Part shown: positions 2 through 58,384 of the stretch, piece after piece
Layout: each line of letters begins with the position of its first letter
How positions within the stretch are numbered: position 1 is the first letter of the stretch
Position numbers and translations under genes: made by a program
The notes under the pieces: generated by a model
What the model saw: only the letters and a program-made list of their open reading frames with translations
Told to the model about the DNA's origin: nothing
The model's database searches: none
Assembly: GCA_026387315.1 (NCBI GenBank)
Contig: JAPLLY010000015.1
Span: forward strand, 22,825-86,824
Source: Candidatus Omnitrophota bacterium
GTDB lineage: Bacteria; Omnitrophota; Gorgyraeia; Gygaellales; Profunditerraquicolaceae
Length of the DNA stretch: 64,000 nucleotides
Direction: 5' to 3'

Positions 2-1039
2 TTTCTTCTGCATCTGGAGAATCTGGATAGCCATATCTTACATATTTATTTATTGGTTGCCCCGGATCTTTTGGGAGTAAAAAGTTTTGTTCCTTTAATT
101 GAAACACATAATACGGTTGTGCGCAGGGCGTTACGCATGAAAAAGGAATGTAATGATGTTTGTGATATTCTGGTTGGGCGCCACGTGCATCCGATCTCCT
201 GTATTGTCGGCGGGTTTACCAAGCTCCCGCGGGAAAAAGATTTGCTCCGTATGCTCAACATTTTAATTGGCCTGCGTCCGGATATGGAAGCGACTTTAGA
301 GTTAGCCAAGGCCCTTAAATTTCCACAGTTTAGCCGTGAAACTGAATATGTGAGCCTGGTTAATGATAGCAGTGAATATCCGATGCTTTCAGGAGACTTA
401 GGCTCAACTGATGGATTGCGAATGGCTAAAAAAGACTACCGTAAACTTACCAACGAATTTGTAGTTAGCCATTCTAGCGCTAAACACACCAAGGCTACTC
501 GGCAATCTTATGCGGTTGGGGCGCTGGCGCGTTTTAATCTTAACCAGCATAAACTTCATCCCAAGGCTAAAGAAGCAGCTAAGGCTTTGGGGATGAAACC
601 AATAGTAACTAACCCATACTTAAATACTGCTGCCCAGCTGATTGAATGTGTGCATTCGCTGGAGGATGCTATTGAGATCTTGGAAAGGCTTAAAGATAAA
701 GGTGTGGATTATTCCCAGGAGATTGTGGTGGGCTTAAATGAACGGGGTACTATTCCAGTTAAGGCGGGTTGCGGCATTGGGGCAGTTGAAGTTCCCAGAG
801 GAATTCTATTCCATGAATATGAAATTGATAATCAAGGTAAGATTGTCAACGCTAATTGCGTTATTCCTACCGGGCAGAATTTGAATAATATCGAACATGA
901 TATGGCCTCATTAGTTCCTCAAATACTTGATAAGAGCCAAGAAGAGATTACTCTCCTGCTGGAGATGCTGGTACGCGCTTATGACCCGTGTATCTCCTGC
1001 TCCGCGCATTTTTTGAATGTCAAATTTGTTGGCCGGTAA
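2..1039 (+). CDS. [NiFe]-hydrogenase large subunit, group 3b (sulfhydrogenase alpha-like); 5' end outside window
   Basis: Frame open from base 2 (…SHILHIYLLVAPD); GRHVHP, EVPRG, and C-terminal L2 motif RAYDPCISCSAH plus a 9-aa cleavable tail. Confidence 0.93.
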   Translation, partial: FLLHLENLDSHILHIYLLVAPDLLGVKSFVPLIETHNTVVRRALRMKKECNDVCDILVGRHVHPISCIVGGFTKLPREKDLLRMLNILIGLRPDMEATLELAKALKFPQFSRETEYVSLVNDSSEYPMLSGDLGSTDGLRMAKKDYRKLTNEFVVSHSSAKHTKATRQSYAVGALARFNLNQHKLHPKAKEAAKALGMKPIVTNPYLNTAAQLIECVHSLEDAIEILERLKDKGVDYSQEIVVGLNERGTIPVKAGCGIGAVEVPRGILFHEYEIDNQGKIVNANCVIPTGQNLNNIEHDMASLVPQILDKSQEEITLLLEMLVRAYDPCISCSAHFLNVKFVGR

Positions 1040-1598
1040 TACTGGCTCAGTAACCAATCTTTTAACTCCCCAAGAATTTTCTCACACACTGATTATCACT
1101 GTAGGTAATTGTTTTCGCGCTGATGATGGAGTGGGGCCATATATCGCCTCTGGTCTAAAACCGAGCGTTAAGCTTTCGGTGATTGACGCCGGATCTACTC
1201 CGGGAAATATCATTGATCAGGCGATAAAGTTATTTGCGCAGCAGGAGGCCTTACTTGAGAGGCCGGTACGCGCCTCTGCGCGGCACCCGGCCTTATCTGA
1301 GAGGCCGGTACGCGCCTCTGCGCAGAGGATTATCTTTATTGATGCGGCGGATTTTGGGGGAGCGCCCGGAGAATTGCGCCTCATTGATGCCGAACATATT
1401 CCCGAGTCAACTTTAAGCACGCACAGTATGCCATTGCCGGTGATTAGCCGTATTTTGTATGAAGATACTCAGGCCGAGATTTATTTTATCGGTATTCAGC
1501 CTAAAAGCGTAGAACATAAAGATGGCCTTTCTAAAGAGGTAAGTTCTACTGCCGACGCGCTGATTAAGCATATTAATCAGGAGTTTAAGGATGCATGA
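1017..1598 (+). CDS. Hydrogenase maturation endopeptidase (HycI/HybD family) with an internal 14-aa duplication
   Basis: GNCFRADDGVG, IDAADFG, STHSMP, IGIQP motifs; overlaps the large-subunit stop. Confidence 0.9.
   Translation: MSNLLAGNTGSVTNLLTPQEFSHTLIITVGNCFRADDGVGPYIASGLKPSVKLSVIDAGSTPGNIIDQAIKLFAQQEALLERPVRASARHPALSERPVRASAQRIIFIDAADFGGAPGELRLIDAEHIPESTLSTHSMPLPVISRILYEDTQAEIYFIGIQPKSVEHKDGLSKEVSSTADALIKHINQEFKDA
1247..1323. repeat. 42-bp-period tandem duplication inside the protease CDS
   Basis: ggccttacttgagaggccggtacgcgcctctgcgc (1247) and ggccttatctgagaggccggtacgcgcctctgcgc (1289). Confidence 0.9.
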
Positions 1599-1836
1599 AA
1601 TTCATTTTCTGGAGGATTTATTTAAAGATATCCTACATCATCTTAGCCAGCATAATGCCAAAAATGTAACGCAGGTGTTTTTGGAATTAGGCGAGTTTAC
1701 TGAGATTAATGAGGAGTGCTTAAGGTTTTTCTTTAAAGAAAAATCTCAAGGCTCAGCATTAGAGAATGCTTTATTCAGTATAAAACATATTCCGCAACAG
1801 CGCGTTTTGCGCCTGGTTTCATTTGATTATGATTAA
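1591..1836 (+). CDS. hypA: HypA-like nickel metallochaperone lacking the zinc-finger subdomain
   Basis: N-terminal MHE motif, LELGEFTEINEECLRFFF…GSALENA, C-terminal LRLVSFD strand; both CxxC pairs absent. Confidence 0.8.
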   Translation: MHEIHFLEDLFKDILHHLSQHNAKNVTQVFLELGEFTEINEECLRFFFKEKSQGSALENALFSIKHIPQQRVLRLVSFDYD

Positions 1837-1928: not shown

Positions 1929-3236
1929 ATGTGTTATGCAATTCCCGGAAAAATAGAGGCGATTAATAATAAGATGGTGGTTGTAGACTACTTCGGCGAG
2001 AAGAAGAAAGCCTATAATGAACTAGATGGTTTGTCTGTCGGTGATTATATCTACGCCCAGGGTGGTTATGCTATTGCGAAAATTCCCGAAGATGAAGCCA
2101 AAAGCATTCTGGCTGTTTGGAAGGAGACTTTTTTTGAGCTTCAGGAAGTTGACCTAAAGCTTTCCCGCCTGGACCTTAATCAGAAATCTGTATCCGGCGA
2201 ATTCTTGAGAATATTGGATAAGGCAGCCGAAGGCAAGAAACTTTCGCCGGAAGAACTCCTGATTTTGATTAAGGAAAAAAATAAACCCGCCCTGGAGCTT
2301 CTTTTCAAAACGGCAAATTTCTTGCGTCAGAAACACCATAAGAATTCTTGCTGCGTGCATGGGATTATTGAAATTTCCAATTACTGCCGCTGTAATTGTG
2401 ATTATTGCGGTATCGCTAAGGGTAACCAAAATATTACGCGTTATCGCTTAACTTGCGGCCAGATACTTGAAGCTGCCCGGCAAGCAATACAGGAGCATGG
2501 TTTTAAGGCGCTGGTGTTGCAATCCGGTGAAGATAGTGGATATAGTATAGAGGAGCTTGCCGAGATTATCCGTAAGATAAAAGTTAATTGGCCGGCTCTA
2601 ATTTTTATTAGCTTCGGAGAAGTGGGGCTGGATAATTTAAAGATTCTTTATGATGCCGGCGCGCGGGGATTGCTTTTGCGATTTGAAACATCTAACCCCA
2701 AGCTTTATCAACAGGTCACCGCGGGTAAAGATCTGGCTAGCCGCATTGCGCATTTAAAAAAAGCTTATGAGTTGGGCTATATGATTATTACCGGAGGTTT
2801 GATTGGCTTGCCGCAACAAAGCCCAGAAGATCTTTTAAATGACATACTTTTAACTAAAGAGTTGCATGCCGAGATGTTTAGTTTTGGCCCATTTATTAGG
2901 CATCCGCAAACCCCGCTGGCTAAATATCCATCGCCCGAAGTAGAAACTGTGCTTAAGGTTATTGCTATTTCGCGCATCATTGATGCGGCGAATGCTAAAA
3001 TTCTAGTTACTACTGCCTTGGAGACACTTAATCCTGATGCTAGGAGAGAGGCGCTGCTTAGCGGAGCGAATTCCGTGATGCTTAATGTAACTCCGCTTGA
3101 ATACCGGTCCTTTTATAACATTTATCCTGCGCGCGCTCATGAAAAAGAGAGCATCGCAGTTCAGATTAAAGATACTATCGGGCTTCTAATGTCTCTAGGA
3201 CGCTCACCTACTGATTTAAGTGTGTTATCCCCGTGA
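1929..3236 (+). CDS. HypC-HydE fusion: N-terminal HypC chaperone domain plus HydE-like radical SAM domain
   Basis: aa 1-65 MCYAIPGKI…VGDYIYAQGGYAIAKIPEDEA (HypC); then CRCNCDYC, LQSGED, LRFETSN, GPFIRHPQTPL, TTALETL, GANSVMLNVTP, YRSFYNIYP (HydE). Confidence 0.88.
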   Translation: MCYAIPGKIEAINNKMVVVDYFGEKKKAYNELDGLSVGDYIYAQGGYAIAKIPEDEAKSILAVWKETFFELQEVDLKLSRLDLNQKSVSGEFLRILDKAAEGKKLSPEELLILIKEKNKPALELLFKTANFLRQKHHKNSCCVHGIIEISNYCRCNCDYCGIAKGNQNITRYRLTCGQILEAARQAIQEHGFKALVLQSGEDSGYSIEELAEIIRKIKVNWPALIFISFGEVGLDNLKILYDAGARGLLLRFETSNPKLYQQVTAGKDLASRIAHLKKAYELGYMIITGGLIGLPQQSPEDLLNDILLTKELHAEMFSFGPFIRHPQTPLAKYPSPEVETVLKVIAISRIIDAANAKILVTTALETLNPDARREALLSGANSVMLNVTPLEYRSFYNIYPARAHEKESIAVQIKDTIGLLMSLGRSPTDLSVLSP

Positions 3237-3316: not shown

Positions 3317-3949
3317 ATGAAAACGAACAAACTTTGTATTATGCGGCTTTCTAAGTATAAGAGCGCGCTTTATCGCCTTAAATCACTGGGTTTTGTGCGG
3401 ATTTTTTCGGATAATTTAGCGGATGCCGTAGAGGTAACTTCGTCTCAGGTGCGTAAGGATTTTTCTATTTTTGATATATCGGGAAATAAACGCGGCGGCT
3501 ATAAGATTGATGAACTGATTGAAAAGATTAATACTATTCTTGGTAAAGATGAATTGCAAAAAGTGGTGATTGTTGGTTTAGGAAAGCTGGGATCCGCTCT
3601 TACGCATTATACTGGTTTTGAGAAAGAGGGGATAAAGGTTGTCGCTGCTTTTGATATAGACGCGTTAAAATTTAAACCCAAAGAGAAAACCCCGGTTTTC
3701 CCCTTAGCCGGCCTGCCGGAGTTTGTGCGTAAGAATAATATTAAAATTGGAATTATTACGGTCCCGGCTGCGGCCGCCCAGCCAGTAGTTGATATTATGC
3801 TTTCGGCAGGAATTAAAGGGGTATTAAATTTTGCCCCAATACAACTGCGGGGAAATGATGATTGCCTGATAAACAATGTGAATCTTGAGGTAGAGCTGGA
3901 AAACCTTATTTATTTCGTTAATGCCTTAATTAAGGCAAAAGGAAAATAA
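3317..3949 (+). CDS. rex: Redox-sensing transcriptional repressor Rex
   Basis: RLSKY, QVRKDFS…G.RGGY winged helix, VGLGKLG Rossmann fold, LNFAP. Confidence 0.95.
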   Translation: MKTNKLCIMRLSKYKSALYRLKSLGFVRIFSDNLADAVEVTSSQVRKDFSIFDISGNKRGGYKIDELIEKINTILGKDELQKVVIVGLGKLGSALTHYTGFEKEGIKVVAAFDIDALKFKPKEKTPVFPLAGLPEFVRKNNIKIGIITVPAAAAQPVVDIMLSAGIKGVLNFAPIQLRGNDDCLINNVNLEVELENLIYFVNALIKAKGK

Positions 3950-3956
3950 GCAGTAA

Positions 3957-5345
3957 ATGAAGCAGATTAATGAAGAGAGAATAAATAACTTATTATTGTC
4001 CACTGCCGATAGCGATAGCCGTAAAATTGACAGGATTATTAATAAAAGCAAATCCTTAAAAAGGCTTACGCTGGAAGAATCAGCCATCCTGCTGGCAGTT
4101 CAGGATGCCGGCTCTCTTGAAAAAATATTTGCCGCGGCTAGTTTTGTTAAAGATGCAATTTACGGCAGGCGAGTGGTATTATTTGCCCCGCTTTATATCA
4201 GCAATTTCTGCGTAAATAACTGCCTTTATTGCGCGTTTAAATCCGATAACTTGGCAATTAAGCGTAAAGCCTTAAGCGCAGCTGAAATTAAATCGCAAAC
4301 TGAATGGCTCTTAGGCCGTGGACATAAAAGAATACTGATGGTTTGCGGGGAGGAAGCGCCTGGTGGGGAATCTAATGTAGATTATTATGTCCAAGCAGTG
4401 AAAGCTATTTATGCTGCGGAAGTGGGTAAGAATAAGATTAAAAGGGTTAATGTTAATTGCGCGCCGCTGAGTATTGATGATTTTAAAAAGCTTAAATCAA
4501 GCGGTATAGGGACTTACCAGATTTTTCAGGAAACATATCATCAGAAAACTTATCTGCGTATGCATCCTAAAGGGCCAAAAAGTGATCCTGATAATAGGAT
4601 TGATGCGGTTGATCGGGCATTTAAAGCCGGGATAGATGATATAGGGATTGGCGCGCTTTATGGTTTATTTGACTGGCGTTTTGAGACATTAGGATTGCTT
4701 TCCCATATTGAGCATATGGAGGAGAAATTTAAAGTCGGGCCGCATACTATTTCTGTGCCGCGTATTGAGCCGGCAGAGGGCGCGGAGCTGTCCCTGAGGC
4801 CTCCCCATAAAATTTCTGATGATGAATTTAAAAAGGTGGTGGCGATTTTAAGGCTTTCTGTGCCCTATACCGGGATCATTATGACTACCCGTGAGAATGC
4901 TTTGATGCGCGATGCCTTGATTAGCCTGGGGGTTTCCCAGATTAGCGCTGAATCTAATACCTCTCCCGGAGGGTATTCTGCCAGCCGTGCCGAGCAGGCA
5001 GGCGGTCAGTTTTCGCTTGGTGACCAGCGCAGCCTGGATGAGATCGTGGGGACTTTGATTGCCCATGATTATATCCCCAGTTTTTGCGCTGCCTGTTATC
5101 GCATGGAAAGAACCGGCGAAGCCTTTATGCAATTAGCTAAACCCGGAATGATCAAAGGTAAATGTAGTATGAATGCTTTAATTACTCTGCAAGAATATCT
5201 CGATGATTTTGCATCAGTTAAAGTTAAGCAGGCCGGGTACAAAATGATTGAGCGTTATTTTAACAAACTGGATAATGTTGATCAGGATATGCTAAAGTTC
5301 TTCTTTAGCCATGTAGATTCCGGAATAAGGGATGAGTATGTTTAA
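3957..5345 (+). CDS. hydG: [FeFe]-type radical SAM maturase HydG
   Basis: FAPLYISNFCVNNCLYC, FQETYH, GPHTISVPR (dangler-Fe His), C-terminal CX2CX22C (CAAC…C) auxiliary cluster motif absent from ThiH. Confidence 0.92.
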   Translation: MKQINEERINNLLLSTADSDSRKIDRIINKSKSLKRLTLEESAILLAVQDAGSLEKIFAAASFVKDAIYGRRVVLFAPLYISNFCVNNCLYCAFKSDNLAIKRKALSAAEIKSQTEWLLGRGHKRILMVCGEEAPGGESNVDYYVQAVKAIYAAEVGKNKIKRVNVNCAPLSIDDFKKLKSSGIGTYQIFQETYHQKTYLRMHPKGPKSDPDNRIDAVDRAFKAGIDDIGIGALYGLFDWRFETLGLLSHIEHMEEKFKVGPHTISVPRIEPAEGAELSLRPPHKISDDEFKKVVAILRLSVPYTGIIMTTRENALMRDALISLGVSQISAESNTSPGGYSASRAEQAGGQFSLGDQRSLDEIVGTLIAHDYIPSFCAACYRMERTGEAFMQLAKPGMIKGKCSMNALITLQEYLDDFASVKVKQAGYKMIERYFNKLDNVDQDMLKFFFSHVDSGIRDEYV

Positions 5346-5482: not shown

Positions 5483-5556
5483 CCCCGCACCTTCTTTGTA
5501 TTTAGATATTAGAAGGCGTAGGGTTAAAAATTAACTAATAAGAAGAAGGTGCGGGG
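5483..5556. mobile_element. Family B MITE-like element (13-bp TIR CCCCGCACCTTCT, TGAA duplication)
   Basis: TIRs at 5483 and 5544-5556, TGAA on both sides; second copy at 33020-33092. Confidence 0.8.
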
Positions 5557-6380
5557 TGAAAATACTCAACAAACAGATTATTAATGATGTGGCAGGGGTA
5601 AAGATTACGCAATTGGATATTCTTTCTCCGGATATCGCCGCGAAGGCCCAAGCCGGACAGTTTGTGATGTTAATGGCTAGCGAAAAGGGGGAGCGCATCC
5701 CCTTGACCTTAGTGAATACGGATAAAATAAAAGGTACTCTGAGCTTGATTTTTCAGGAGGCAGGTTTTACCACTCGGAGTTTAGGTGGATTAAATCCCGG
5801 AGATTCACTTTATTCTTTAGTCGGGCCTTTAGGGCATCCTACCCAGATTAAGAAATATGGAAAAATAATTTTGGTTGGCGGAGGAGTGGGGATTGCCGAG
5901 ATTCTGCCGGTTGCCCGCGCCTTAAAGCAGGCAGGTAATCAGATTACTACTATTCTGGGTTCTCGGAATAAAGACCTGCTCATTTTGGAAGCTGAACTTA
6001 AAAGCGCATCTGATCAAATTTATATTATGACTGATGATGGTTCTTACGGAAGGAAAGGCTTTACCACTGACATGTTAAAGGAACTTTTGAGTAAAGGTAA
6101 ATATGATTTGATTTATTCTGTGGGCCCTATTCCGATGATGAAGAGAGCGGCTTTAGCTAGCAGTGAATATAAGATTAAAACTTTAGTTTCGCTTAATGCG
6201 CTGATGGTGGATGCCACCGGAATGTGCGGTTGCTGCCGGGTGACTGTTTTTGGCCAGGTAAAATTTAGTTGTGTTGATGGGCCGGATTTTGATGGCCATG
6301 GCGTTGATTGGGAAGAACTCCAAAAGAGAAATAAGGTGTATAGCATTCAGGAGAAACACATTTGTAATCTGAAGATATAG
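5556..6380 (+). CDS. NfnA/SudB-like FAD/NAD-binding 2Fe-2S subunit
   Basis: GQFVML…GERIPLT, GPLG, GGGVG, TDDGSYG, MVDATGMCGCCRV…CVDGP. Confidence 0.9.
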   Translation: MKILNKQIINDVAGVKITQLDILSPDIAAKAQAGQFVMLMASEKGERIPLTLVNTDKIKGTLSLIFQEAGFTTRSLGGLNPGDSLYSLVGPLGHPTQIKKYGKIILVGGGVGIAEILPVARALKQAGNQITTILGSRNKDLLILEAELKSASDQIYIMTDDGSYGRKGFTTDMLKELLSKGKYDLIYSVGPIPMMKRAALASSEYKIKTLVSLNALMVDATGMCGCCRVTVFGQVKFSCVDGPDFDGHGVDWEELQKRNKVYSIQEKHICNLKI

Positions 6381-6530: not shown

Positions 6531-7952
6531 ATGAAAAAAGAACCGGTAAAAGTTAGAGAAGTACCTGCGGTAACCAGAACGGGGAATTTTCAGGAGGTAG
6601 TCCTGGGGTACTCTGAAGAAGAGGCTTATGTAGAAGCCTCCCGCTGTCTGCAGTGTAAGAACCCGGTTTGTATCAGCGGTTGTCCGGTAGGCATTGATAT
6701 CAAGAAGTTTATTTATCAGATCACGCGAAAGGATTATAATCTGGCGTATTTTACGATTAGAGAAAAAAATAATTTTCCTTCGATCTGCGGAAGAGTCTGC
6801 CCGGCGGAATACCAATGCCGTAAAACCTGTATACTGACTAAGAAAGACGCGCCTTTTGCTTCCGAAAAAGCGATCAATATTCATTTTTTAGAACGTTTTG
6901 CCGGGGATTATGGCAAGAATAACAATTTGGATGTTAAGGAAGAAAAAGGCCAAAAGTTTTCTAAATTTAAAGTGGCGGTAGTGGGTTCTGGCCCGGCTGG
7001 TTTATGCTGCGCCGGAGAATTAGCGCGCCAGGGAATCCAAGTTGATATTTTTGAAAGCCTGCATAAAACCGGCGGGGTTTTAAGATATGGCATCCCTCCT
7101 TTTAGGCTGCCTTGGGATGTTTTGGATTTTGAGATAAATTATCTAAAAAAATTAGGGGTTAATTTTATTACTAATTTTCTTGCAGGCAAAGCTAAAACCA
7201 TTAAAGAATTATTCACCCAAGGGTATTCTAATGTATTTTTGGGGCTGGGCGCGGGGGTGCCATCTTTCTTGGGAATTAATGGCGAAAATCTTTGTAATAT
7301 TTATTCAGTAAATGAATTCTTGACTAGGGTCAATTTAATGTCTGCTTATAAATTCCCCGAGTTTCATACTCCGGTTAATATTGGAAGAAACGTTTTGATT
7401 GTTGGTGGAGGCAATACGGCTATGGATTCTGCCAGAGTTGCTTTGAGACTGCAGAAGTTAAATGGTTTGCCGCTTAACACTACAATTATTTATCGGCGCA
7501 CGGAAATTGAAATGCCGGCAAGACGCTTGGAACTGGAGCATGCCCGGGAAGAAGGAGTAAAGTTTGAATTTTTGGTGCAGCCAAAAGAGTTTATTGGAGA
7601 TGGCCGGGGGTTTGTTAGGAAGTTAATTTGTCTTAAGTCTAAATTAAAAGAACCGGACAGCTCAGGCAGGAGGAGGCCGGTGATTATAGAAGGAAGTGAA
7701 TTTCAACTTGATTGTGATTTATGCGTGATTGCCGTGGGGTTAAAAGCAAATCAAATTTTAATTAACGCCACCCCGGAATTAAAAACAGATAAGTATTCAG
7801 ATGTCATTGTTGACGCTGAAACTATGGAGAGTTCGATTAAAGGGGTTTTTGCCGGTGGGGATATTGTGGGTGGAGAAGGCACGGTTATTGAAGCGATGGG
7901 GATGGCCAAAAAGGCAGCCCAGTCAATAATCGGCGAGCTTTCTAAAAAATAA
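6531..7952 (+). CDS. NfnB/SudA-like (GltD-family) NADPH-dependent oxidoreductase
   Basis: EASRCLQC…CISGCP, CGRVCP, GSGPAG, GGGNTAMD, FAGGD; paired with the NfnA-like gene. Confidence 0.9.
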   Translation: MKKEPVKVREVPAVTRTGNFQEVVLGYSEEEAYVEASRCLQCKNPVCISGCPVGIDIKKFIYQITRKDYNLAYFTIREKNNFPSICGRVCPAEYQCRKTCILTKKDAPFASEKAINIHFLERFAGDYGKNNNLDVKEEKGQKFSKFKVAVVGSGPAGLCCAGELARQGIQVDIFESLHKTGGVLRYGIPPFRLPWDVLDFEINYLKKLGVNFITNFLAGKAKTIKELFTQGYSNVFLGLGAGVPSFLGINGENLCNIYSVNEFLTRVNLMSAYKFPEFHTPVNIGRNVLIVGGGNTAMDSARVALRLQKLNGLPLNTTIIYRRTEIEMPARRLELEHAREEGVKFEFLVQPKEFIGDGRGFVRKLICLKSKLKEPDSSGRRRPVIIEGSEFQLDCDLCVIAVGLKANQILINATPELKTDKYSDVIVDAETMESSIKGVFAGGDIVGGEGTVIEAMGMAKKAAQSIIGELSKK

Positions 7953-9532: not shown

Positions 9533-11452
9533 ATGGATAAAGATCAGATAGTTGAAGATTTCTTCCGCAGCTTAAGAGTTGCGCTCACCAATGCCTTTTC
9601 TTACCCTAAGGATCATCCTTATTTTATTAAATCCGTAGAGAATTTTAAGCTCAAGCTTGAGGCGCTTCTGGTTATTTTCAACCCGTTTAGAATTGGAGTA
9701 ACCAGCTTAGGGTTTGTAGTTGATGGCAAGAATCTTAACCGGACCGGTTTCTATGACGAATTGGCCCGCCTGCTGCATCAGCGTAAAATAAAAAGCATAG
9801 AAATCAGGGTCGGCTCAAACCTTGGCGAGTTAATTCAATTCCTTAGCGTTATTTCGTTACCGCAAAAGGAGTTTTTTAGAAACGGCGGCTTGGTCGCGCT
9901 TTTAGAGAAGGAACGGCTGACTCATTTTACGATTCAGGAGCTGGATTACTCCGCCTTCTTGCATGGAGAAGGACAGGAGTGTACTGATATTTGGGGATAT
10001 ATGCTTAAAGAGGCGGCGTATAGTAATGATGCTGTCAAAATGGACCAACTTGCTGATAGTTTTGGCTTGCTTATTAAGCGGGTTGATGAGAAAGATCTTT
10101 TTGATACCGAGGGGATTTCTACCCAGATTAATGAGTTTTTGACTTGTTTAAGGGACAAAAACAAAGAAAAGTTTGATAAATGTTTAAATGATGTTTTTCT
10201 TTGGCTCCTGCGCAATAAGAAAACACTTAGCCATGATAAGCTGGTAAAACTCAAACCGGTATTTAATGGTTTAAGCCAGGAGGAATTTACTACTCTTCTC
10301 AAAGAGGGGTTTTTGCAGGAAGATAATTTTGACTCTTTGAGCCTGCAGCTTTTTTCCAAAATCTCTGAACAGGAGGATTCCCCTAAGATTGCTAAAGATT
10401 TTTTTAGTAAAATGAGCCAGACACAGGAGTTAAAGGATAACCCCGTGGTGGTAAAGAAAATCCGGAATTTATTAAGCAGCTCCCAGGACGACCCGATGTC
10501 TGCGGTATACCGCAATACACTTGATTCTTTAGCTAAGAATATTTCTTTTTCCGGTAAACTGTCTTTTGACCACGCGACGCTTAAGGAAAATTACCGTCAT
10601 ATAGTTTTAAGCATACTGGCAACCGATGAAAAGACAAATACCCAGCAGATGGCAGCCGCGATTTTGGAGAAAGAGTTAGCTGGCGTATTCCAGGATAATG
10701 ATACCGGTTTACTAAAAGACCTTTGGAATGTGTTGGCCGAAAGAAAAAAAGAGGGCATAAAAGCATGCCTTGATCTTGAAAAGAGCCTTTCTTCTTTTAT
10801 CGAGAATATTGTTTTAAATGGCAGCCTGGCTTCTGAACAGGAATTTCTTCTAGAGATGGTTTCTTTGCCTAGCCAGGAGTTGAATTTATACTTGGATAAA
10901 ATATTTTCTGCTGAAAAAACAAATAAGCCGGCCCTAGGTTTATTTTTAAGATTATTTCAATTCAACCTGGATGTTTTTTATGAAAGAGTGGCCCAAAGAA
11001 TTCAGGATACGGAATTTATTGTTAGTTTAATTGACGCGCTAGGCCAGATTGATGCGTCCGCAACTCTAAACATATTAGAATATATTTATTCCGGTTCTAA
11101 TGAATTGGTTAAATTTGAATCGTTAAAAGCTATGCGTAAATCCAAGAAGGTGGACACCGCGTTTCTTACGCGCCAGTTAAATACGGATTCATTCCCCCTT
11201 AAGAAAGAACTAATTTCTGTTTTAATATTAGATGCGCAGGCAAAAAATGATGTTTTGAATCTGCTATTTAGAATTCCCAGTTTTCTGGGGAGTAAAAATG
11301 GACTGCTGATTAAAAATATGCAGATTGCTTTTGATCTGTATTTTATTGAAGCATCCGGCTGTATTAAGGATTTAAGCCGCAGAAGATTTTTCTGGAATAG
11401 CCAACTGCGTAATCAGGCAGCCCGGATATTAAAGGAGTGGAATGTCAGCTAA
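9533..11452 (+). CDS. Hypothetical helical/HEAT-repeat-like protein, partner of the HD-GYP protein
   Basis: 639-aa ORF; N-terminal YPKDHP domain; HEAT-like C-terminus (IDALGQID…ESLKAM). Confidence 0.65.
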   Translation: MDKDQIVEDFFRSLRVALTNAFSYPKDHPYFIKSVENFKLKLEALLVIFNPFRIGVTSLGFVVDGKNLNRTGFYDELARLLHQRKIKSIEIRVGSNLGELIQFLSVISLPQKEFFRNGGLVALLEKERLTHFTIQELDYSAFLHGEGQECTDIWGYMLKEAAYSNDAVKMDQLADSFGLLIKRVDEKDLFDTEGISTQINEFLTCLRDKNKEKFDKCLNDVFLWLLRNKKTLSHDKLVKLKPVFNGLSQEEFTTLLKEGFLQEDNFDSLSLQLFSKISEQEDSPKIAKDFFSKMSQTQELKDNPVVVKKIRNLLSSSQDDPMSAVYRNTLDSLAKNISFSGKLSFDHATLKENYRHIVLSILATDEKTNTQQMAAAILEKELAGVFQDNDTGLLKDLWNVLAERKKEGIKACLDLEKSLSSFIENIVLNGSLASEQEFLLEMVSLPSQELNLYLDKIFSAEKTNKPALGLFLRLFQFNLDVFYERVAQRIQDTEFIVSLIDALGQIDASATLNILEYIYSGSNELVKFESLKAMRKSKKVDTAFLTRQLNTDSFPLKKELISVLILDAQAKNDVLNLLFRIPSFLGSKNGLLIKNMQIAFDLYFIEASGCIKDLSRRRFFWNSQLRNQAARILKEWNVS

Positions 11453-13018: not shown

Positions 13019-14110
13019 ATGCAGGCAATTTTAGTTTTAGAAGATGGTACAGTGTTTAAAGGTAACTCTTTTGGCTCAAGCGGTGAAGCTCTGGGTGAAG
13101 TAGTCTTTAATACCAGTATGGCCGGATACCAGGAGATTATTACGGATCCTTCCTATAAAGGCCAAATTGTGACGATGACCTATCCTTTGATTGGTAATTA
13201 TGGAATTAATAAAGAGGATGTTGAAAGCCGCCGGCCTTTCTTAGAAGGTTTTGTAGTTAAGGAGTACAGCAAGATCGCCAGCAACTGGAGGAAAGAGCAG
13301 GGGTTAGGAGAATATTTGAAAGAAAATAATATTCTGGCAATTGAAGGAATTGATACCCGCCGGCTGACTCTGCATATCAGAGAAAAAGGCTCGATGAAAG
13401 CAGTCCTCTCTACGGTAGATTTTGATGAACATAGTCTGGCCAACAAAGCCAGATCAAGCAGGGGTTTAGCCGGCCTGGATCTGGTTAAGGATGTTACTAT
13501 CCCCAAAAGATATGCTTATACGCGGATTAAAGACGCTAAATTTAAGGTGGTGGTCTTAGATTGCGGGGTAAAGTATAATATATTAAGAGAATTACTGCGT
13601 TATAAATGCAATATTACGGTAATGCCTGCGCAGACAACCGCTAAGGATATTCTTGCGGCCCATCCTGATGGAGTCTTGCTTTCTAACGGGCCGGGGGATC
13701 CGGCGGCAGTAGATTATGTGGTCAAGACGGTTGCTACTTTGATTGGCCGTGTTCCGATTTTCGGAATTTGCCTGGGGCATCAGATGCTCGGGCTTGCCTT
13801 AGGGGGTAAGACTTATAAGCTTAAGTTCGGACATCATGGCGCAAACCATCCGGTAAAAGATTTAAAGACAAATAAAGTTTATATCACTAGCCAGAATCAC
13901 TCTTTCTGTGTGGACATTGATTCTTTGCCGAAAAAAGATATCCAGCTGACGCATGTAAATTTAAATGACGGTACTTTAGAGGGGTTGCGGCATAAAAAAT
14001 TACCGATATTTTCCGTGCAGTTTCATCCGGAAGCAGCCCCTGGCCCGCAGGATGCCGAATATTTATTCGCGGAATTCGCCCGATTAATGCAAAAGTCAAA
14101 AAAAAGATAA
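13019..14110 (+). CDS. carA: Carbamoyl-phosphate synthase small subunit
   Basis: [28 protein letters not shown]. Confidence 0.97.
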
Positions 14111-14114
14111 ATTT

Positions 14115-15776
14115 ATGCCCAAGAGAACGGATATTAAGAAAATTTTAATTATTGGTTCCGGCCCCATTGTTATTGGCCAGGCCTGCGAATTTGATTATTC
14201 CGGTACCCAGGCTTGTAAAGTTTTAAAACAACAGGGGTATAAGATAATCTTGGTAAATTCTAATCCGGCAACCATTATGACCGATCCGGAGATTGCCGAT
14301 AAGACTTATATTGAACCGATCACCGTAGAAATAGTGGAGAAGATTATTGCTAAGGAAAGGCCGGATGCGCTCTTGCCTACTCTTGGCGGTCAGACTGCCT
14401 TGAATACCACGATCGGGTTAGCGCAGAAGGGGGTATTAAAGAAATATAAGGTTACGACTATTGGAGCGGATATTCAGGCGATAAAAAAAGGCGAGGACCG
14501 CCAATTGTTTAAGGCGGCGATGAAAAAGATCGGATTGGACCTGCCCAAAAGCGGCCGAGCTTATAATCTGGAGGAAGCAATTGCCGTTTCGCAGAAAGTC
14601 GGTTTTCCTCTGATTATCCGGCCTAGTTTTACGATGGGAGGAGCCGGAGGCTCAATCGCTTACAATATCGAAGAGTTTAAGGTTTTAGCTAAGCGCGGCC
14701 TGGAATCTAGCCTGATTAGCGAGATCCTGGTTGAAGAGTCGGTTATCGGTTGGAAAGAGTTTGAGCTGGAAGTCATGCGTGATTTAAAAGACAATGTTGT
14801 GGTTATTTGTACGATTGAAAATTTTGATCCGATGGGCGTGCATACCGGAGACAGTATTACCGTGGCGCCAATTCAGACCCTTACCAATAAAGAGTATCAG
14901 CTGATGCGTAATGCCGCTATTGCTTGTATCCGCGAGATTGGCGTAGCCACCGGCGGTTCCAATATCCAGTTTGCCGTGCATCCGGAAACCGGTAGGATGG
15001 TGGTCATTGAGATGAATCCCCGGGTTTCGCGCAGTTCAGCATTATCTTCAAAAGCCACAGGTTTTCCGATTGCCAAGATTGCGGCTAAGCTTGCCGTAGG
15101 GTATACTTTGGATGAGATTCCCAATGATATCACCCAGCTAACCCCTGCTTGTTTTGAGCCGGCGATTGATTATTGCGTGGTAAAGATACCGCGTTTTACC
15201 TTTGAAAAATTTGCTTTGGCAGAGAATACGCTGGGAATATCAATGAAGTCAGTGGGCGAGGCGATGGCAATCGGCCGCACATTCAAAGAAGCTTTGCAGA
15301 AAGGGCTGCGCGCATTAGAGCTTAAGAAGTTTGGTTTAGAAAGTATTATCTTTAAGAATCCGGAAGAGACTAAAGTTGAAAATGAGATTTTAGATAAAAT
15401 TTATAAGAAATTAAGACAGCCTAATGCTGAAAGGATTTTTTATATTGGCGATGCTTTTCGCGCTAAATTGGATATTGAAATAGTACATGATTTAACTAAG
15501 ATCGACCGCTGGTTTTTGCATAACATCAAAGAGATCGTTGATTGCGAGAGAGAGATACTTAAGAATAAGCCTAACATTTCTGGCGAACTTCTGAAGAAGG
15601 CTAAGGAGTATGGTTTTAGCGATAAACAGTTGGCCAAGCTTTTATCAATAAGTGAGATCGAGGTTTATAATTTAAGAAGATCGATGAATATAACTGTCGA
15701 TTTTAAACTGGTGGATACCTGTGCCGGAGAGTTTAAGGCGCAAACCCCTTATTTTTACTCTACTTATGATAAATAA
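14115..15776 (+). CDS. carB: Carbamoyl-phosphate synthase large subunit, N-terminal half only (split CarB)
   Basis: MPKRTDI…[22 protein letters not shown]; ends at VDTCAGEF…YFYSTYDK, the boundary before the second ATP-grasp domain. Confidence 0.9.
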
Positions 15777-55495: not shown

Positions 55496-58384
55496 GTGAT
55501 TTGGGATATACTGGCAAAATGGTTTAATCTTCTACGGTCGTTGATAGGCGGCGCCTTAAATGATAAAACATGTTTTATATATTTTGCCGGTTTATTTATT
55601 GCCATTGTTCTTGTACTAATTTTTCTTCTTTTGTGGATTGGGCATGCCATCTGCGTTCTTATCGCGCGATTAATTAATAAAGTATCATGTTATATGAATC
55701 GGCACACGGCGCCAAAATCAGGTGGTTTTCAACGATACATATATTCATCGGCTCCGCTTCAGGATGAGCTTTTTGACGATTTGACGAACGGACACGGTAT
55801 TTTTCAGCAGAATTTTTTTGCCAATAAATTCCGAGGGCCGATTTTGTCCGAACTGGAGAACAGCTTTAGAAAATCCGAGGGCGGAATGTTTTTGGTCAGC
55901 GGATATAGGGGCGTCGGCAAAACAACATTTTTAAATTATATTTTTCGTAATCTCAGAAGGCCTGAAACACGAGGTAATGCCTACCACTATCGAATAATCA
56001 ATTTAAATATGGGCGGGGTTAAGCCTGACCTGAAATTCGAGCTTATTTATAAAACGCTTCTTGAATTAAAAAAAGATTTTGACGCGTTATACTGGCGTTT
56101 TTTTATCTGGTGTTTTCCATGGTTGAGTGATAACTTTCCCGTGCTCGGTAAAATTCGCGAATTGGAGATGAATCTCCTCTGGCAGCAGAAAGTTGTGCAG
56201 TCGCAAGGCGGCGGCGCGGGCAATGAAAAAAGCGGTGCAGCGCCGATAATTTTGAACATTAAATCGGAACGAACTGAAGAGTTGCAAAAACGGGAAAAAT
56301 CCGTTTTTTATGAAGAACCTTTTCGTGAGTTGATTCGCCTGTATAAAAAGAAAAAACAAAAAATCGTGTTCGTCCTTGATGAGCTTGATAAGTTGTCGGA
56401 CGCATCGTTGAATAAAATCGATGAAAAGAACAAGCAGGGAAAGGAAAGACACCGGTATCAGCACATGGATTATCTGCTTGGCGCCTTGTCTGAGATAAAA
56501 AGTTTGTTGTTTGAAAGCGGGGTTATTTTTGTGCTGGTGGTCAATAAAGACGTGTACGATTATTGGCGGCATCACCATAGCCAGGAAGACTTGTTTATGA
56601 ATCTGGTTACGCATGTGGAATATATTCCCTGCTATCGCAAAGAGGAAATGCGGTTGCAGCTGGATTTTCCGATCCGCATAGATCGAAACGTCGTTCTTGA
56701 CCCGTCTGATACTGCTGTAATCATCAGGGAGTATTTCGAGGTTTGCGCGTATTATGAAAGCTACTCGAATCCGCGGCTGTATTTCCAGTTGTTAGCCAGG
56801 AAAATAACTAATGATCGTGAGATCGTATTGACACAGGGCGATGTGAAGTATCTGCGTGAGCGGATAAAGTTGTTCGAATTAAACGACCTTTTGTATCGGT
56901 ATGTGTACGATAAAGATGAATCAGTATTCAGCCGGTTATTTGTTGGCATCGAAGAACTGCGGAAGGAATTCACGTCGGGAGATTTGTTTAAGGCATATGT
57001 TGAAAGCGTTGAGAAGAATTATAATCAGGTTAAAGCGATTCATTCCGGCGATAATGCCAATGCTCCTGCGGATATTAAAGCATTCTGGGCAGAGGTTTTT
57101 AAAACAAAAACAGGCGTGGTTGCAACACAAGGCGTTCTGTCAAAGCGCGTTAATTCGTTTCTGGGTATTTTAAAGGAGCGGGATTTTGTCGCGAATTATC
57201 CCTACACTAACTACCTTATACGCCGTCTTACGGACTTTGTCGCGATTATTGAAGAGCGTAACTTTGTTTCAATCGACGATATTATTGCTGAGATGGATTT
57301 TCGTGAATTTGAGTTTGATGATATCGCCGGCCAGTTTTTGATCTGTCTTTTTATTCCGCTGGGCATTGTTATTCTGCGTAATAACGGCGCTCTGGAGATC
57401 AGCGGCAGGAATGTGCGTGTTAAGTGTAATTATTCCGATCTTGATTCCTATCACGCCGGATGCGAATACGAGTGGGATGGCAATTTTGATAAGGCATTCG
57501 ATAGTTACAATAAATTTATCAAGGACCAGCCTTATTCGTTTGAAGCGCATTATCGCAAAACAAGGATGCTCTATTACATGCTTGTGGTGGGATTTTATCA
57601 TAAAGATATTGACGTTAGGGCTCATTGGGCTGACAGCTTGTTGAAATTGAAAGATTGGATGGACGAGGGCATGGGGGATATCGGCCAGCGGGCGGATCAT
57701 GAGTTTTTGCGGTGGTTCTTTTTTGAGAAAATACTCCTCAATGACACAGAATCGGATGATTACGCGTATTATGCAGAGAGGCTTCGGTATTTTGAAAAGG
57801 TTGATATGGCAATAGATGAGCTCTATGTGCGAGCAATAGCAGAGCGGCCGGATGACGCGAGCGCGCGTATGCGTTATGGGACGTATTTATTCTGGAACAA
57901 ACGTTATGTTGAGGCATTGGACAGATTTAATGAGTCGGATAACCAATATAAAGATACCAATGTTTTGATTAGAATTGCTGACACTTATTCCATGTTGAAT
58001 GATTATGAAAATGCAAAAAAGTTCTATATGAGCGCATTGCGCGCATCAACGAGTTGGTTGCAACGGGCCTTGATTATTATCGGCGTTGCCAAGGCGCAAG
58101 AATTACTCTTGCTTGTGGGAAAAGATTTGAATTCGCGTAAATTGATAAATAGCGCGTTGAGTTGGGTATCAACCGGCGACCTGCTCGGCAGAAAGGATAA
58201 CTATTTTCGGCTCTATGGCGATTCGATGCAACGGTTGGCCGGGTGCGGGTGTACGATTATCGGATCGAATGCCAAGAAGGTTAAGGAAGAATTGAGCGCG
58301 CAGATGACTCCGACTGAGCGGGCCGTTTATCAAATGAAAAGAACGTATTGGGATGATTTAGGGGTGTTGAATGGAACAAAATAA
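55496..58384 (+). CDS. Membrane-anchored P-loop NTPase (KAP/AAA-like) with C-terminal TPRs
   Basis: N-terminal TM segment, Walker A GYRGVGKT, Walker B FVLDELDK, TPR-like YYENAKKFY-type repeats. Confidence 0.75.
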   Translation: MIWDILAKWFNLLRSLIGGALNDKTCFIYFAGLFIAIVLVLIFLLLWIGHAICVLIARLINKVSCYMNRHTAPKSGGFQRYIYSSAPLQDELFDDLTNGHGIFQQNFFANKFRGPILSELENSFRKSEGGMFLVSGYRGVGKTTFLNYIFRNLRRPETRGNAYHYRIINLNMGGVKPDLKFELIYKTLLELKKDFDALYWRFFIWCFPWLSDNFPVLGKIRELEMNLLWQQKVVQSQGGGAGNEKSGAAPIILNIKSERTEELQKREKSVFYEEPFRELIRLYKKKKQKIVFVLDELDKLSDASLNKIDEKNKQGKERHRYQHMDYLLGALSEIKSLLFESGVIFVLVVNKDVYDYWRHHHSQEDLFMNLVTHVEYIPCYRKEEMRLQLDFPIRIDRNVVLDPSDTAVIIREYFEVCAYYESYSNPRLYFQLLARKITNDREIVLTQGDVKYLRERIKLFELNDLLYRYVYDKDESVFSRLFVGIEELRKEFTSGDLFKAYVESVEKNYNQVKAIHSGDNANAPADIKAFWAEVFKTKTGVVATQGVLSKRVNSFLGILKERDFVANYPYTNYLIRRLTDFVAIIEERNFVSIDDIIAEMDFREFEFDDIAGQFLICLFIPLGIVILRNNGALEISGRNVRVKCNYSDLDSYHAGCEYEWDGNFDKAFDSYNKFIKDQPYSFEAHYRKTRMLYYMLVVGFYHKDIDVRAHWADSLLKLKDWMDEGMGDIGQRADHEFLRWFFFEKILLNDTESDDYAYYAERLRYFEKVDMAIDELYVRAIAERPDDASARMRYGTYLFWNKRYVEALDRFNESDNQYKDTNVLIRIADTYSMLNDYENAKKFYMSALRASTSWLQRALIIIGVAKAQELLLLVGKDLNSRKLINSALSWVSTGDLLGRKDNYFRLYGDSMQRLAGCGCTIIGSNAKKVKEELSAQMTPTERAVYQMKRTYWDDLGVLNGTK

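Follow-up and report, generated by a model that had tools for sequence, protein, structure and literature searches.

[NiFe] and [FeFe] hydrogenases are, in the textbook account, of unrelated origin and matured by separate machineries. In the HmdB/Hcg system of the FeGP cofactor of [Fe]-hydrogenase, too, a HydE-like radical SAM enzyme is associated with an Fe-CO cofactor whose client is not [FeFe]. To our knowledge, it has not been settled from which metabolite the CO ligand derives when [NiFe] enzymes mature anaerobically.

The product of HydG, complex-B, is given as Fe(Cys)(CO)2(CN) in excerpts of a review, which also give M224 and M291 of Thermotoga maritima HydE a part in how the Fe(CO)2CN fragment is handled (PMC10114646), and the iron unit of [NiFe] hydrogenases is given as Fe(CN)2CO in excerpts of PMC9431212. 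On the strength of these excerpts, the puzzle that the first-pass annotation of this locus had raised is a fair one: a HydG synthon carrying two CO and one CN would be feeding a [NiFe] site that holds one CO and two CN. No description of a HypC-HydE' fusion, or of HydG taking part in [NiFe] maturation, was found among CC-licensed PMC papers and bioRxiv. Neither is described in the available excerpts of PMC9431212, PMC11216029 and PMC12727194, and 'Omnitroph' occurred in none of the papers on hydrogenase maturation or HydG among the matches listed.

The window and its gene order

The window, that is, the whole stretch of DNA analysed here, comprises 64,000 nt of Candidatus Omnitrophota bacterium (assembly GCA_026387315.1, contig JAPLLY010000015.1, positions 22,825-86,824 of the forward strand; GTDB lineage Omnitrophota; Gorgyraeia; Gygaellales; Profunditerraquicolaceae). 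The bin that holds it, G000, is 93.3% complete and consists of 62 contigs. The first genes of the window run on one strand in the order group 3b [NiFe] hydrogenase, protease, short HypA, HypC-HydE' fusion, Rex, HydG and NfnAB, as follows.

2..1039, +, group 3b [NiFe]-hydrogenase large subunit, C-terminal 345 aa (motifs, family matches)
1017..1598, +, hydrogenase maturation endopeptidase of the HycI/FrhD type (TIGR00072, 100.7 bits; PF01750)
1591..1836, +, short HypA, 81 aa (partial HypA model match)
1929..3236, +, HypC-HydE' fusion, 435 aa (TIGR03956, TIGR00074, PF01455 and PF04055)
3317..3949, +, Rex redox-sensing repressor (family match, synteny)
3957..5345, +, HydG, 462 aa, radical SAM tyrosine lyase / Fe(CO)x(CN) synthon synthase (profiles, motifs, 4WCX alignment)
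5556..6380, +, NfnA-like gene (family match, synteny)
6531..7952, +, NfnB/GltD-like gene (family match, synteny)

The whole large-subunit gene (G000:C7:22538-23863) encodes 441 aa, with the B, G and D subunits upstream of the window. The protein contains RICGICACGH and DPCISCSAH, bears a C-terminal extension beyond the His, and finds its top NCBIfam matches in sulfhydrogenase HydA/ShyA. The endopeptidase gene carries a degenerate tandem repeat insert (21 bp x 3.1) at 1256-1320. The short HypA retains the N-terminal MHE and matches the first 69-70 positions of HypA models of 112 to 116 positions, and no CxxC pair was found in its 81 residues. A second [NiFe] hydrogenase in the bin, a group 4 enzyme, is encoded on contig C34.

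Identity of HydG and of the HypC-HydE' fusion

The hydG gene is a single open frame from ATG to stop, with a stop-rich reverse strand. Its product scores above the cut-off of the NCBIfam HydG model (TIGR03955, 482.4 bits against 312.15) and below that of ThiH (TIGR02351, 293.2 bits against 380). The alignment with the solved chain 4WCX runs from end to end, residues 4-461 of the window HydG pairing with residues 23-479 of 4WCX (E 1.6e-132), an entry whose molecule is named 'Biotin and thiamin synthesis associated' and which we take to be T. italicus HydG; a second solved chain, 4RTB, named 'HydG protein', matches at E 2e-112. In the translation the radical SAM CX3CX2C cysteines are C85/C89/C92 (CVNNCLYC), GPHTIS stands at 261-266 with its histidine at H263, as in the aligned stretch of 4WCX, and the auxiliary-cluster motif is exact (C377-X2-C380-X22-C403, i.e. 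CAAC, 22 residues, C) and aligns with that of 4WCX. This CX2CX22C motif does not occur in ThiH. Motifs and profile scores alike uphold the initial claim that all HydG hallmarks are present and that the gene is not a ThiH; judged by its sequence, it is a normal, intact HydG. A distinct ThiH-like paralogue with radical SAM and BATS domains, 33% identical, lies on contig C24. By analogy with the literature, H263 would be the ligand of the dangler iron; excerpts of the review describe a Cys-Fe(His) species and give no residue number (PMC10114646). In a comparison of 14 HydGs, every sequence kept both the radical SAM cysteines and GPHT(I/F)S, and 13 of them CX2CX22C, the exception being that of G031, with CX5C.

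The fusion protein begins with a HypC domain (residues 1-75, starting MCYAIPG), which is followed by a linker and a HydE-like radical SAM barrel with its CX3CX2C at C153/C157/C160. The HypC domain exceeds the gathering cut-off of PF01455 (53.2 bits against 28.5), scores 41.7 bits with TIGR00074 and matches the solved 2Z1C. With the HydE model TIGR03956 the fusion scores 247.9 bits, just under the cut-off of 254.6. HydE is nevertheless its best family by far, since the runner-up, PylB, reaches 142.7 bits and the match to HmdB (TIGR03957) is weak at 75.6 bits. The solved T. maritima HydE 7O1O is matched over residues 21-344 (E 2.9e-60), and M316 and M384 of the fusion, invariant in 14 fusions, align to its M224 and M291; across 46 HydE' rows and across 36 canonical rows, the equivalents of these two methionines show a conservation of at least 85%. 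Five residues, C142, H144, R251, E365 and S382, are invariant in HydE' only and not in canonical HydE. In a quickly built tree with SH-aLRT support only, all 42 fusions and four unfused or fragmentary representatives formed one clade (support 100) apart from the canonical HydEs of Omnitrophota.

The conserved histidine of the VHAGFA stretch of HypC probably carries functional weight. It is replaced by glutamine in all 79 fusions and is present in both canonical HypCs of Omnitrophota used for comparison, and the Cys2 of the N-terminal Met-Cys is kept in 79 of 79. A triple fusion, HypC-HydE'-HydG, of 915 aa is found in G031, and two others are P0127 and P0135.

Gene content of the bin and its relatives

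In the bin, 93.3% complete, none of HypD, HypE, HypF, HypB and HydF was found over cut-off, the best HydF match reaching 91 bits against a cut-off of 325, and no canonical (second) HydE was found. The usual company of HydG (HydE, HydF and an [FeFe] hydrogenase) was not found, except for an [FeFe] hydA on C33, a 6-kb orphan contig of the bin that also encodes HydB and HydC. No continuation of C33 was found elsewhere in the bin, whether the 3' end of hydA, HydA2, HydE or HydF. Its HydB is 75-83% identical to nine full-length congener matches, approximately the divergence of the rest of the genome, and in a comparison with 27 related genomes its identity nowhere exceeds 83%, so that none of these presents itself as the donor species. 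Its Rex shows 63% identity to the window Rex and 92% to that of G008. C33 may be a mis-binned congener fragment, or a native but unassembled locus. The first-pass annotation had named evidence that HydG serves an [FeFe] hydrogenase encoded elsewhere together with hydF as what would overturn its reading. One half of this is present, the hydA of C33; for the other half, neither hydF nor a canonical hydE was found. Because of this combination HydG may be dual-use here, as it apparently is in congeners with both hydrogenase types.

The order-level sample comprised 41 genomes, 25 of them from the genus (24 relatives and G000). HypD and HypF were found in none of the 25 genus genomes, and in the order only in G027, G032, G033, G035 and G039, all five of which lack both the fusion and HydG; the same searches were positive in five sister-family genomes and in four of 14 control genomes. 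HydG and the fusion occur together in five genomes of the same genus (G004, G011, G012, G017 and G022) and five of other families (G028, G030, G031, G036 and G038), and in these ten no HydA, HydF, canonical HydE, HypD or HypF was found. In the 11 genomes with [FeFe] genes only, neither the fusion nor a [NiFe] large subunit was seen. Ten genomes hold a canonical HydE as well as the fusion, and the fusion is thus not a replacement HydE.

Synteny points in the same direction. In congeners with both hydrogenase types the order is NiFe-protease-HypA-fusion-Rex-[FeFe genes]-HydG-HydE-HydF, where the Rex gene, in the same position, heads the [FeFe] block; NfnAB follows HydF in the [FeFe]-only G008, and in G015 one unassigned 458-aa ORF lies between the HydE match and NfnA. 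The window, G017, G012 and G004 share NiFe-protease-HypA-fusion-Rex-HydG-NfnAB. The NfnA and NfnB genes are conserved downstream neighbours that mark the site of the hydE-hydF loss, with hydG-hydE-hydF-nfnA-nfnB in congeners and hydG-nfnA-nfnB in the window. The gene orders as a whole show two deletions, one on either side of a kept, intact hydG. The [NiFe] operon reads ferredoxin-HydG-fusion-protease in G038 and protease-fusion-HydG in G022, and the triple fusion of G031 likewise belongs to a [NiFe] operon.

The window HydG is the same single-copy orthologue as that of the congener hydG-hydE-hydF clusters, with 63-85% identity, and no paralogue specialised for [NiFe] enzymes. The idea of a HydG clade dedicated to [NiFe] enzymes was rejected on this ground, and because the more distant HydG type (45-48%) also adjoins HydF in [FeFe]-only genomes.

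The same pattern was seen in wider surveys, although nearly all genomes of the analysis are metagenome bins and relatives do not count as independent samples. Among 201 sampled Omnitrophota genomes, the fusion was found in 24, HypD in 50 and both in none. A [NiFe] large subunit was present in 76, of which 24 had the fusion, 48 HypD and four neither, i.e. exactly one of the two in 72; the fusion was found in none of the 125 genomes without a large subunit. HydG accompanied the fusion in 22 of 24 genomes, compared with 10 of the 50 HypD genomes, and the two fusion genomes without detected HydG are G152 (83% complete) and G205 (89% complete). Fusion loci from many phyla (by record title), 80 in number, were scanned over 8 kb around the fusion; a [NiFe] subunit gene was present in 64 and HydG in 36, with none seen in the other 44, and HypD, HypF, HydF and canonical HydE were found at none. 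A HypA ORF occurred at 38 of these loci, most of 80 aa as judged by eye. Five genomes of other phyla with the fusion all held HydG, and HypD was found in none; two of them contain chromosome-titled records (L110, the Atrimonadaceae record CP184673.1, and L092). One of the five is G042, whose only listed record, of 1.77 Mb, is titled 'chromosome: 1', and no HydA or HydF was found in G042, G043 and G045.

Two other readings of the locus are to be weighed against these counts. The hypCDEF genes might be present but missed through incompleteness or divergence, with HydG and the fusion irrelevant to [NiFe] maturation. The bin is indeed incomplete and in many pieces, and hyp genes often cluster, so that one assembly gap could take all of them. 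This is nevertheless extremely improbable, since HypD and HypF were found in no genome of the genus by searches that readily succeeded in sister families and in controls, since HypD is found in none of the 24 fusion genomes compared with 48 of the 52 other large-subunit-positive Omnitrophota genomes, and since it was found in none of the five genomes of other phyla, including the two with chromosome-titled records.

Alternatively, HydG might mature only the [FeFe] hydrogenase of C33, its adjacency to [NiFe] genes being a relic of an ancestral supercluster and the fusion acting as the HydE of this lineage. The hydA, HydB and HydC of C33, the position of the orthologous HydG in congener hydG-hydE-hydF clusters and the HydE core residues kept in HydE' would all fit. 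It is quite unlikely, however, that this accounts for the locus: neither HydF nor a canonical HydE turned up in the bin and C33 lacks a continuation; ten genomes of the order together with G042, G043 and G045 hold HydG and the fusion without hydA; ten genomes hold a canonical HydE beside the fusion; the 42 fusions form a clade of their own; and the fusion is never seen without a [NiFe] large subunit in the Omnitrophota sample.

A candidate route to the [NiFe] iron centre and its relation to known systems

Gene content, synteny and the mutual exclusion of fusion and HypD together make it most likely that HydG feeds [NiFe] maturation. Strong support for the premise of the first-pass annotation, a HydG in the service of the [NiFe] enzyme, comes from genomes that hold HydG and the fusion without an [FeFe] hydrogenase, HydE, HydF, HypD or HypF, and from the lack of any overlap between fusion and HypD in the 201 genomes. 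Against it speak the hydA of C33, an enzyme that HydG could serve here, the orthology of this HydG with those of hydG-hydE-hydF clusters, the mismatch in ligand numbers, the 44 fusion loci with no HydG nearby and the two fusion genomes in which none was found. HydG and its partner, the HypC-HydE' fusion two genes upstream, would most likely take the place of HypD, HypE and HypF, so that they make the iron-CO/CN unit and deliver it, and the clients are most likely the 3b operon directly upstream and the group 4 enzyme of C34.

In the proposed route, HydG would cleave tyrosine and assemble Fe(Cys)(CO)2(CN) on its dangler iron, a chemistry shown elsewhere for its family, to which the intact motifs point. 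The HydE' barrel would accept this synthon and, as the conserved HydE residues suggest, a 5'-deoxyadenosyl radical would attack the cysteine sulfur to leave a mononuclear Fe-CO/CN fragment. The attached HypC domain could then take the fragment on Cys2 and pass it into the large subunit, to which the short HypA would add nickel and from which the endopeptidase would trim the C-terminus, both standard steps. In genomes that also encode an [FeFe] hydrogenase with HydE and HydF, one single-copy HydG probably feeds both routes.

The four cysteines, the arginine of PRG and the threonine of (I/V)(P/A/S)T in the ligand pocket do not vary among the large subunits compared, 34 of the fusion type and 11 of the HypD type. 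The pocket thus looks built for one CO and two CN, and the earlier suggestion of a non-standard Fe(CO)2(CN) site is disfavoured by these canonical residues. Since HydG yields two CO and one CN, an extra ligand-exchange step would be needed, with the ratio set to two CN to one CO before or during insertion. The simplest, speculative route would be displacement of one CO by the second cyanide of a two-tyrosine HydG cycle.

The stoichiometry problem would disappear if HydG gave free CO and CN-, or CO only, to iron held by HypC, with no synthon transfer and with HydE' assigned another task, e.g. providing or trimming a thiolate ligand. Release of CO and CN- by HydG and its activity without the dangler iron are reported in excerpts of PMC10114646 and PMC9431212, and the five HydE'-specific invariant residues would suit a different task. 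We regard this as unlikely. In the HydGs of [NiFe]-only genomes, the cysteines of the auxiliary cluster and the histidine of GPHT(I/F)S, features needed for the dangler-iron synthon, are preserved, HydE' retains the two methionines tied in the review excerpts to the Fe(CO)2CN fragment (PMC10114646), and the joining of HypC, HydE' and HydG in one chain in the triple fusions hints that the product is channelled and does not diffuse.

Synthon transfer through HydE' thus remains the preferred reading. It also seems reasonably likely that HydG and HypC-HydE' constitute a second, tyrosine-based route to Fe(CN)2(CO), used in place of HypD/E/F by group 3b and group 4 enzymes in at least ten phyla, which by record title include Omnitrophota, Atribacterota, Margulisiibacteriota, Spirochaetota, Planctomycetota (with anammox lineages) and Elusimicrobiota. 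The genomic evidence is pointing to an undescribed way of building the [NiFe] iron centre. If it is real, one HydG synthon would be a building block shared by the active sites of the [FeFe] and the [NiFe] hydrogenases, the CO ligand of such [NiFe] enzymes would gain a defined, concrete origin, and new ligand-exchange chemistry, in which CN replaces CO, would take place on HydE' or HypC. Surveys of Omnitrophota, Atribacterota, anammox bacteria and others that use HydG or HydE as [FeFe] markers would then mislead, and those that read the absence of hypCDEF as the absence of a working [NiFe] enzyme would misjudge hydrogen metabolism. A three-gene maturation set (HydG, fusion and short HypA) would also be on offer for heterologous [NiFe] hydrogenase production.

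Among the known systems, HmdB/Hcg differs in that the fusion is far less similar to HmdB (75.6 bits) than to HydE (247.9 bits); that system has no HypC fusion, no HydG partner and a different client enzyme.

The HypC-HypD-HypE-HypF system of the E. coli hypABCDEF type has in common with the present locus the client enzyme, the HypA and endopeptidase steps and a HypC domain with an N-terminal Cys, and the ligand pockets of the large subunits served are indistinguishable. It differs in that HypD, HypE and HypF were not found here and in that the fused HypC domain carries Gln at the position of the His seen in both canonical HypCs of Omnitrophota. Cyanide would derive here from tyrosine and not from carbamoyl phosphate, and the source of CO would be defined.

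A further system to compare is HydG/HydE/HydF maturation of the [FeFe] H-cluster (4WCX, 4RTB; T. maritima HydE 3CIX/7O1O). HydG here is a full member of its family, the HydE' barrel is HydE-like over its whole length with the shared conserved residues kept, and both systems would employ radical SAM enzymes on an Fe-CO/CN synthon, as predicted here from sequence. In contrast to that system, the present one has no HydF, and its HydE-like enzyme forms a separate clade, is fused to HypC and scores below the HydE cut-off. The module stands in [NiFe] operons, also in genomes without any [FeFe] hydrogenase, and the product required of it would be a mononuclear Fe(CN)2(CO) and not a 2Fe subcluster.

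The HydG gene and its surroundings

ATP synthase genes lie upstream of the window and are followed by a group 3b [NiFe] hydrogenase (subunits B, G, D and A), whose large subunit carries the customary ligand motifs RICGICACGH and DPCISCSAH and is extended at the C-terminus. All of the genes from the protease to glutamate dehydrogenase lie on the same strand as this hydrogenase:

1017-1598, + strand: maturation endopeptidase (protease)
1591-1836, + strand: short HypA of 81 aa, MHE retained, zinc domain absent
1929-3236, + strand: HypC-HydE' fusion of 435 aa, in which a HypC domain (MCYAIPG...) is linked to a radical SAM barrel resembling HydE (TIGR03956: 247.9 bits, cut-off 254.6)
3317-3949, + strand: Rex
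3957-5345, + strand: HydG, 462 aa, one uninterrupted reading frame
3' of HydG, + strand: NfnA/NfnB-like genes and glutamate dehydrogenase

The protease contains a degenerate tandem repeat (21 bp x 3.1, at 1256-1320) coding for ERPVRASA-like units, which makes it 193 aa long; the proteases of the four closest relatives (G017, G024, G012 and G004) measure 162-174 aa. Further along (13019-15776), carA precedes a carB-like ORF that reaches only 553 aa, the usual length of carB being about twice that, and two large ORFs of 639 aa (9533-11452) and 751 aa (58371-60626) have no Pfam or NCBIfam match. The window corresponds to positions 22825-86824 of contig C7 in the bin G000 (1.80 Mb in 62 contigs, completeness 93.3%, contamination 5.2%), which belongs to Candidatus Omnitrophota, judging from the source names of the nearest matches to the fusion protein. 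This bin encodes a second [NiFe] enzyme of the group 4 membrane-bound type on contig C34, with its own HycI protease.

The first-pass annotation had described the gene at 3957-5345 as a HydG with all hallmarks and not a ThiH, which proved correct in every detail. The opposite strand is closed across this interval, and the translation carries the radical SAM CX3CX2C motif as CVNNCLYC (C85/C89/C92), GPHTIS at residues 261-266 and the CX2CX22C motif as C377-AA-C380, 22 residues and C403. It scored 482 bits with the NCBIfam HydG model (cut-off 312) and 293 bits with the ThiH model, below the latter's own cut-off of 380; a separate ThiH-like paralogue is located on contig C24. The alignment to the solved chain 4WCX, which is named 'Biotin and thiamin synthesis associated' in its entry and which we take to be T. 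italicus HydG, runs end to end (E 1.6e-132) and includes GPHTIS and the C-terminal cysteine motif, and the solved chain 4RTB, named 'HydG protein', also matches (E 2e-112). Across 14 HydGs, taken from genomes of the [NiFe]-only, dual and [FeFe]-only kinds, the radical SAM cysteines and GPHT(I/F)S do not vary, and the C-terminal motif is kept in 13, the exception being G031, where CX5C replaces CX2C. Because these motifs are conserved in HydGs of [NiFe]-only genomes, the synthon-making features are retained without any [FeFe] enzyme. The window gene itself is an ordinary HydG.

Occurrence of HydG and the fusion

Four recurring gene sets were distinguished in a sample of 41 genomes of the order.

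Recurring gene sets in the order sample (41 genomes)
Set a: HydA ([FeFe]), HydG, HydE and HydF present; fusion and [NiFe] large subunit (3b query) not found. G001, G005-G010, G014, G019, G025, G034
Set b: set a genes plus fusion; HypD and HypF not found. G002, G003, G013, G015, G016, G020, G021, G023, G024, G026
Set c: [NiFe] enzyme, fusion and HydG present; HydA, HydF, canonical HydE, HypD and HypF not found. Ten genomes: G004, G011, G012, G017, G022 (genus); G028, G030, G031, G036, G038 (other families)
Set d: HypD and HypF present; HydG and fusion not found. G027, G032, G033, G035, G039

With the 3b query, the [NiFe] large subunit was found in every set b genome except G003. Neither HypD nor HypF was found in the 25 genomes sampled from the genus (G000 and 24 relatives), and G000 itself corresponds to set c plus an orphan hydA. 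Outside these sets, G018, G037 and G040 are without any maturase (G040 with a weak group-4-like large-subunit match) and G029 has a HydE' piece at a contig end.

The gene order around hydG differs accordingly. An [FeFe]-only congener (G008) has Rex-HydC-HydB-HydA-HydC2-HydB2-HydA2-HydG-HydE-HydF-NfnA-NfnB. The dual-type congeners G024 and G015 and the sister-family G026 have NiFe(BGDA)-protease-(HypA)-fusion-Rex-histidine kinase-[FeFe genes]-HydG-HydE-HydF, with NfnA-NfnB next in G015, past one 458-aa ORF of no assigned family. The window, G017, G012 and G004 have NiFe(BGDA)-protease-HypA-fusion-Rex-HydG-NfnA-NfnB. Set against the longer gene order, these last loci have lost the [FeFe] structural genes from one flank of hydG and hydE-hydF from the other, leaving hydG intact, and this deletion pattern would be the outcome expected from selection for an [FeFe]-independent function of HydG. 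HydG was also observed within [NiFe] operons of G038 (...ferredoxin-HydG-fusion-protease-Rex) and G022 (group 4 genes-ferredoxin-protease-fusion-HydG-NfnAB). In G031 a single 915-aa HypC-HydE'-HydG open frame (L035:11651-14398) comes after the protease gene within a group 4 operon, and two more such triple fusions, P0127 and P0135 (one of 906 aa and the other of 881 aa), were found amongst the 50%-identity cluster representatives.

One and the same sample of 201 Omnitrophota genomes was searched for the fusion, HypD, the large subunit and HydG.

Fusion and HypD in 201 Omnitrophota genomes (relatives within the sample are not independent, and counts are therefore given in preference to Fisher values)
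Genomes; n; fusion/HydE'; HypD; both; neither
All; 201; 24; 50; 0; 127
With [NiFe] large subunit; 76; 24; 48; 0; 4
Without large subunit; 125; 0; 2; 0; 123

Neither was found in four of the large-subunit genomes: G176, in which the match lies in a frame of 545 aa, much as the weak C24 match of G000 lies in one of 558 aa; G184 (77% complete); G190 (72% complete); and G238 (contamination 7%). HydG was present in 22 of the 24 fusion genomes (the two without it being 83% and 89% complete); amongst the HypD genomes it was present in 10 of 50, and amongst the remaining 127 genomes in 62.

Outside Omnitrophota, 80 fusion-encoding loci were returned, with titles covering Margulisiibacteriota/Saganbacteria/WOR-1, Spirochaetes/Brevinematales, Caldatribacterium/Atrimonadaceae, Elusimicrobia, Deltaproteobacteria, Scalindua/Brocadiaceae, other Planctomycetota, Victivallis, Ozemobacteraceae, UBP13 and a few bins labelled Nanoarchaeota or Woesearchaeota. 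At no more than 8 kb from the fusion, a [NiFe] subunit gene was found in 64 of these loci, the large subunit in 55, a protease in 47, HypA in 38 and HydG in 36, while HypD, HypF, HydF and canonical HydE were found in none, as counted by BLASTP against our own reference set (E <= 1e-6), which distant homologues may escape. The HypA ORF of these 38 loci (out of L051-L130), which recurs near the fusion in several phyla, is mostly of about 80 aa. Five of the non-Omnitrophota genomes were searched whole: all five have HydG, none has HypD, and HydF and HydA were found only in G041 (an Atrimonadaceae chromosome) and G044. The other three, G042, G043 (Scalinduaceae) and G045 (Margulisiibacteriota), have HydG and the fusion, HydA, HydF and HypD not being found; G042 includes a 1.77-Mb record titled 'chromosome: 1'.

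The orphan [FeFe] operon

The first-pass annotation had held that its reading would be refuted if HydG were shown to serve an [FeFe] hydrogenase encoded elsewhere together with hydF. Half of this applies to G000: a hydA is present, but hydF was not found. The only [FeFe] operon, Rex-HydC-HydB-HydA, occupies a 5,958-bp contig, C33 (L018:1-5958), the end of which cuts hydA; the missing 3' end was found nowhere else in the bin, nor were HydA2, HydE and HydF, which follow such an operon in G008 and G014, the two congeners with this operon type that were inspected at this locus. Searches of the whole bin found no HypD, HypF, HypE or HypB, no HydE besides the fusion, and no HydF over the cut-off, the best match (91 bits) covering the GTPase domain only.

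C33 may be a mis-binned fragment of a congener, or else represent an [FeFe] hydrogenase without HydE and HydF. Its HydB (1048 aa) is 75-83% identical to nine full-length congener matches, amongst which no donor species stands out, and the closest relatives of G000 (G017, G012 and G004) have no full-length HydB of this type, no HydA and no HydF, with only a partial 59% match in G004. It was also observed that the G024 bin carries two copies of the fusion, on contigs C49 and C41, which are 89% and 87% identical to that of the window and have different [FeFe] neighbours. This arrangement suggests that congeners are mixed within bins of the genus. Given the [FeFe] hydA in the bin, HydG in G000 may be dual-use.

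The fusion protein and the CO/CN ligands

The HydE' part aligns to residues 21-344 of T. maritima HydE (E 2.9e-60). M316 and M384 of the fusion align with M224 and M291, which a review links to holding and handing over the Fe(CO)2CN fragment (PMC10114646). Neither varies across 14 fusions, and both reach at least 85% conservation in each clade (46 HydE' and 36 canonical rows). A quick tree, with SH-aLRT as its only support measure, places all 42 fusions together with four unfused or fragmentary representatives in a single clade (support 100) that excludes the canonical HydEs of Omnitrophota. Near-invariant in this clade are C142 and H144 (His/Tyr and Arg in canonical HydE), R251 (Lys), E365 (variable) and S382 (Val); the Cys-x-His pair C142/H144 is a candidate extra iron-ligand site. 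Amongst the canonical HydEs of the tree, P0182 and P0198 are HydE-like radical SAM proteins with an N-terminal putative Se/S carrier domain (PF11823).

All 79 fusions compared keep Cys2 of the HypC domain. In the VHAGFA stretch, the His found in two canonical HypCs of HypD-type Omnitrophota, presumably of functional weight, is Gln in every one of the 79, a change that would fit a HypC domain no longer working with HypD.

According to the same review, a single HydG turnover gives Cys-Fe(His)(CO)(CN) and a second gives Cys-Fe(CO)2(CN), or complex-B; the proposal is that the second cyanide binds the auxiliary cluster and so sets complex-B free (PMC10114646). With 2 CO and 2 CN made per HydG cycle, there is therefore enough cyanide for an Fe(CN)2(CO) unit; the element missing for [NiFe] use is a step exchanging one CO for the second CN.

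It had been proposed that the enzyme might instead hold a non-standard Fe(CO)2(CN) site. Across 34 large subunits adjoining the fusion and 11 from HypD genomes, no variation is seen in the four Cys, in the Glu and Arg of VE(V/A)PRG, in the His of LFH or in the Thr of (I/V)(P/A/S)T; in structures of other [NiFe] enzymes, the Arg and the Thr/Ser form hydrogen bonds with the two cyanides. Enzymes of either route therefore seem to expect one ligand set. This identity speaks against the non-standard site and would favour ligand exchange before or during insertion; it is compatible both with synthon transfer and with delivery of free ligands.

The interpretation given in the first-pass annotation is partly supported: its premise that HydG serves the [NiFe] enzyme is well supported and the stoichiometric puzzle attached to it is real, with the hydA on C33 leaving room for dual use. 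We consider it probable that this HydG and the fusion act together in [NiFe] maturation, and hold any particular chemical route with far less confidence. No description of such a system was found in the literature searched by full text. What is unusual is not the gene but the system, in which HydG and the HypC-HydE' fusion stand in place of HypD, HypE and HypF.
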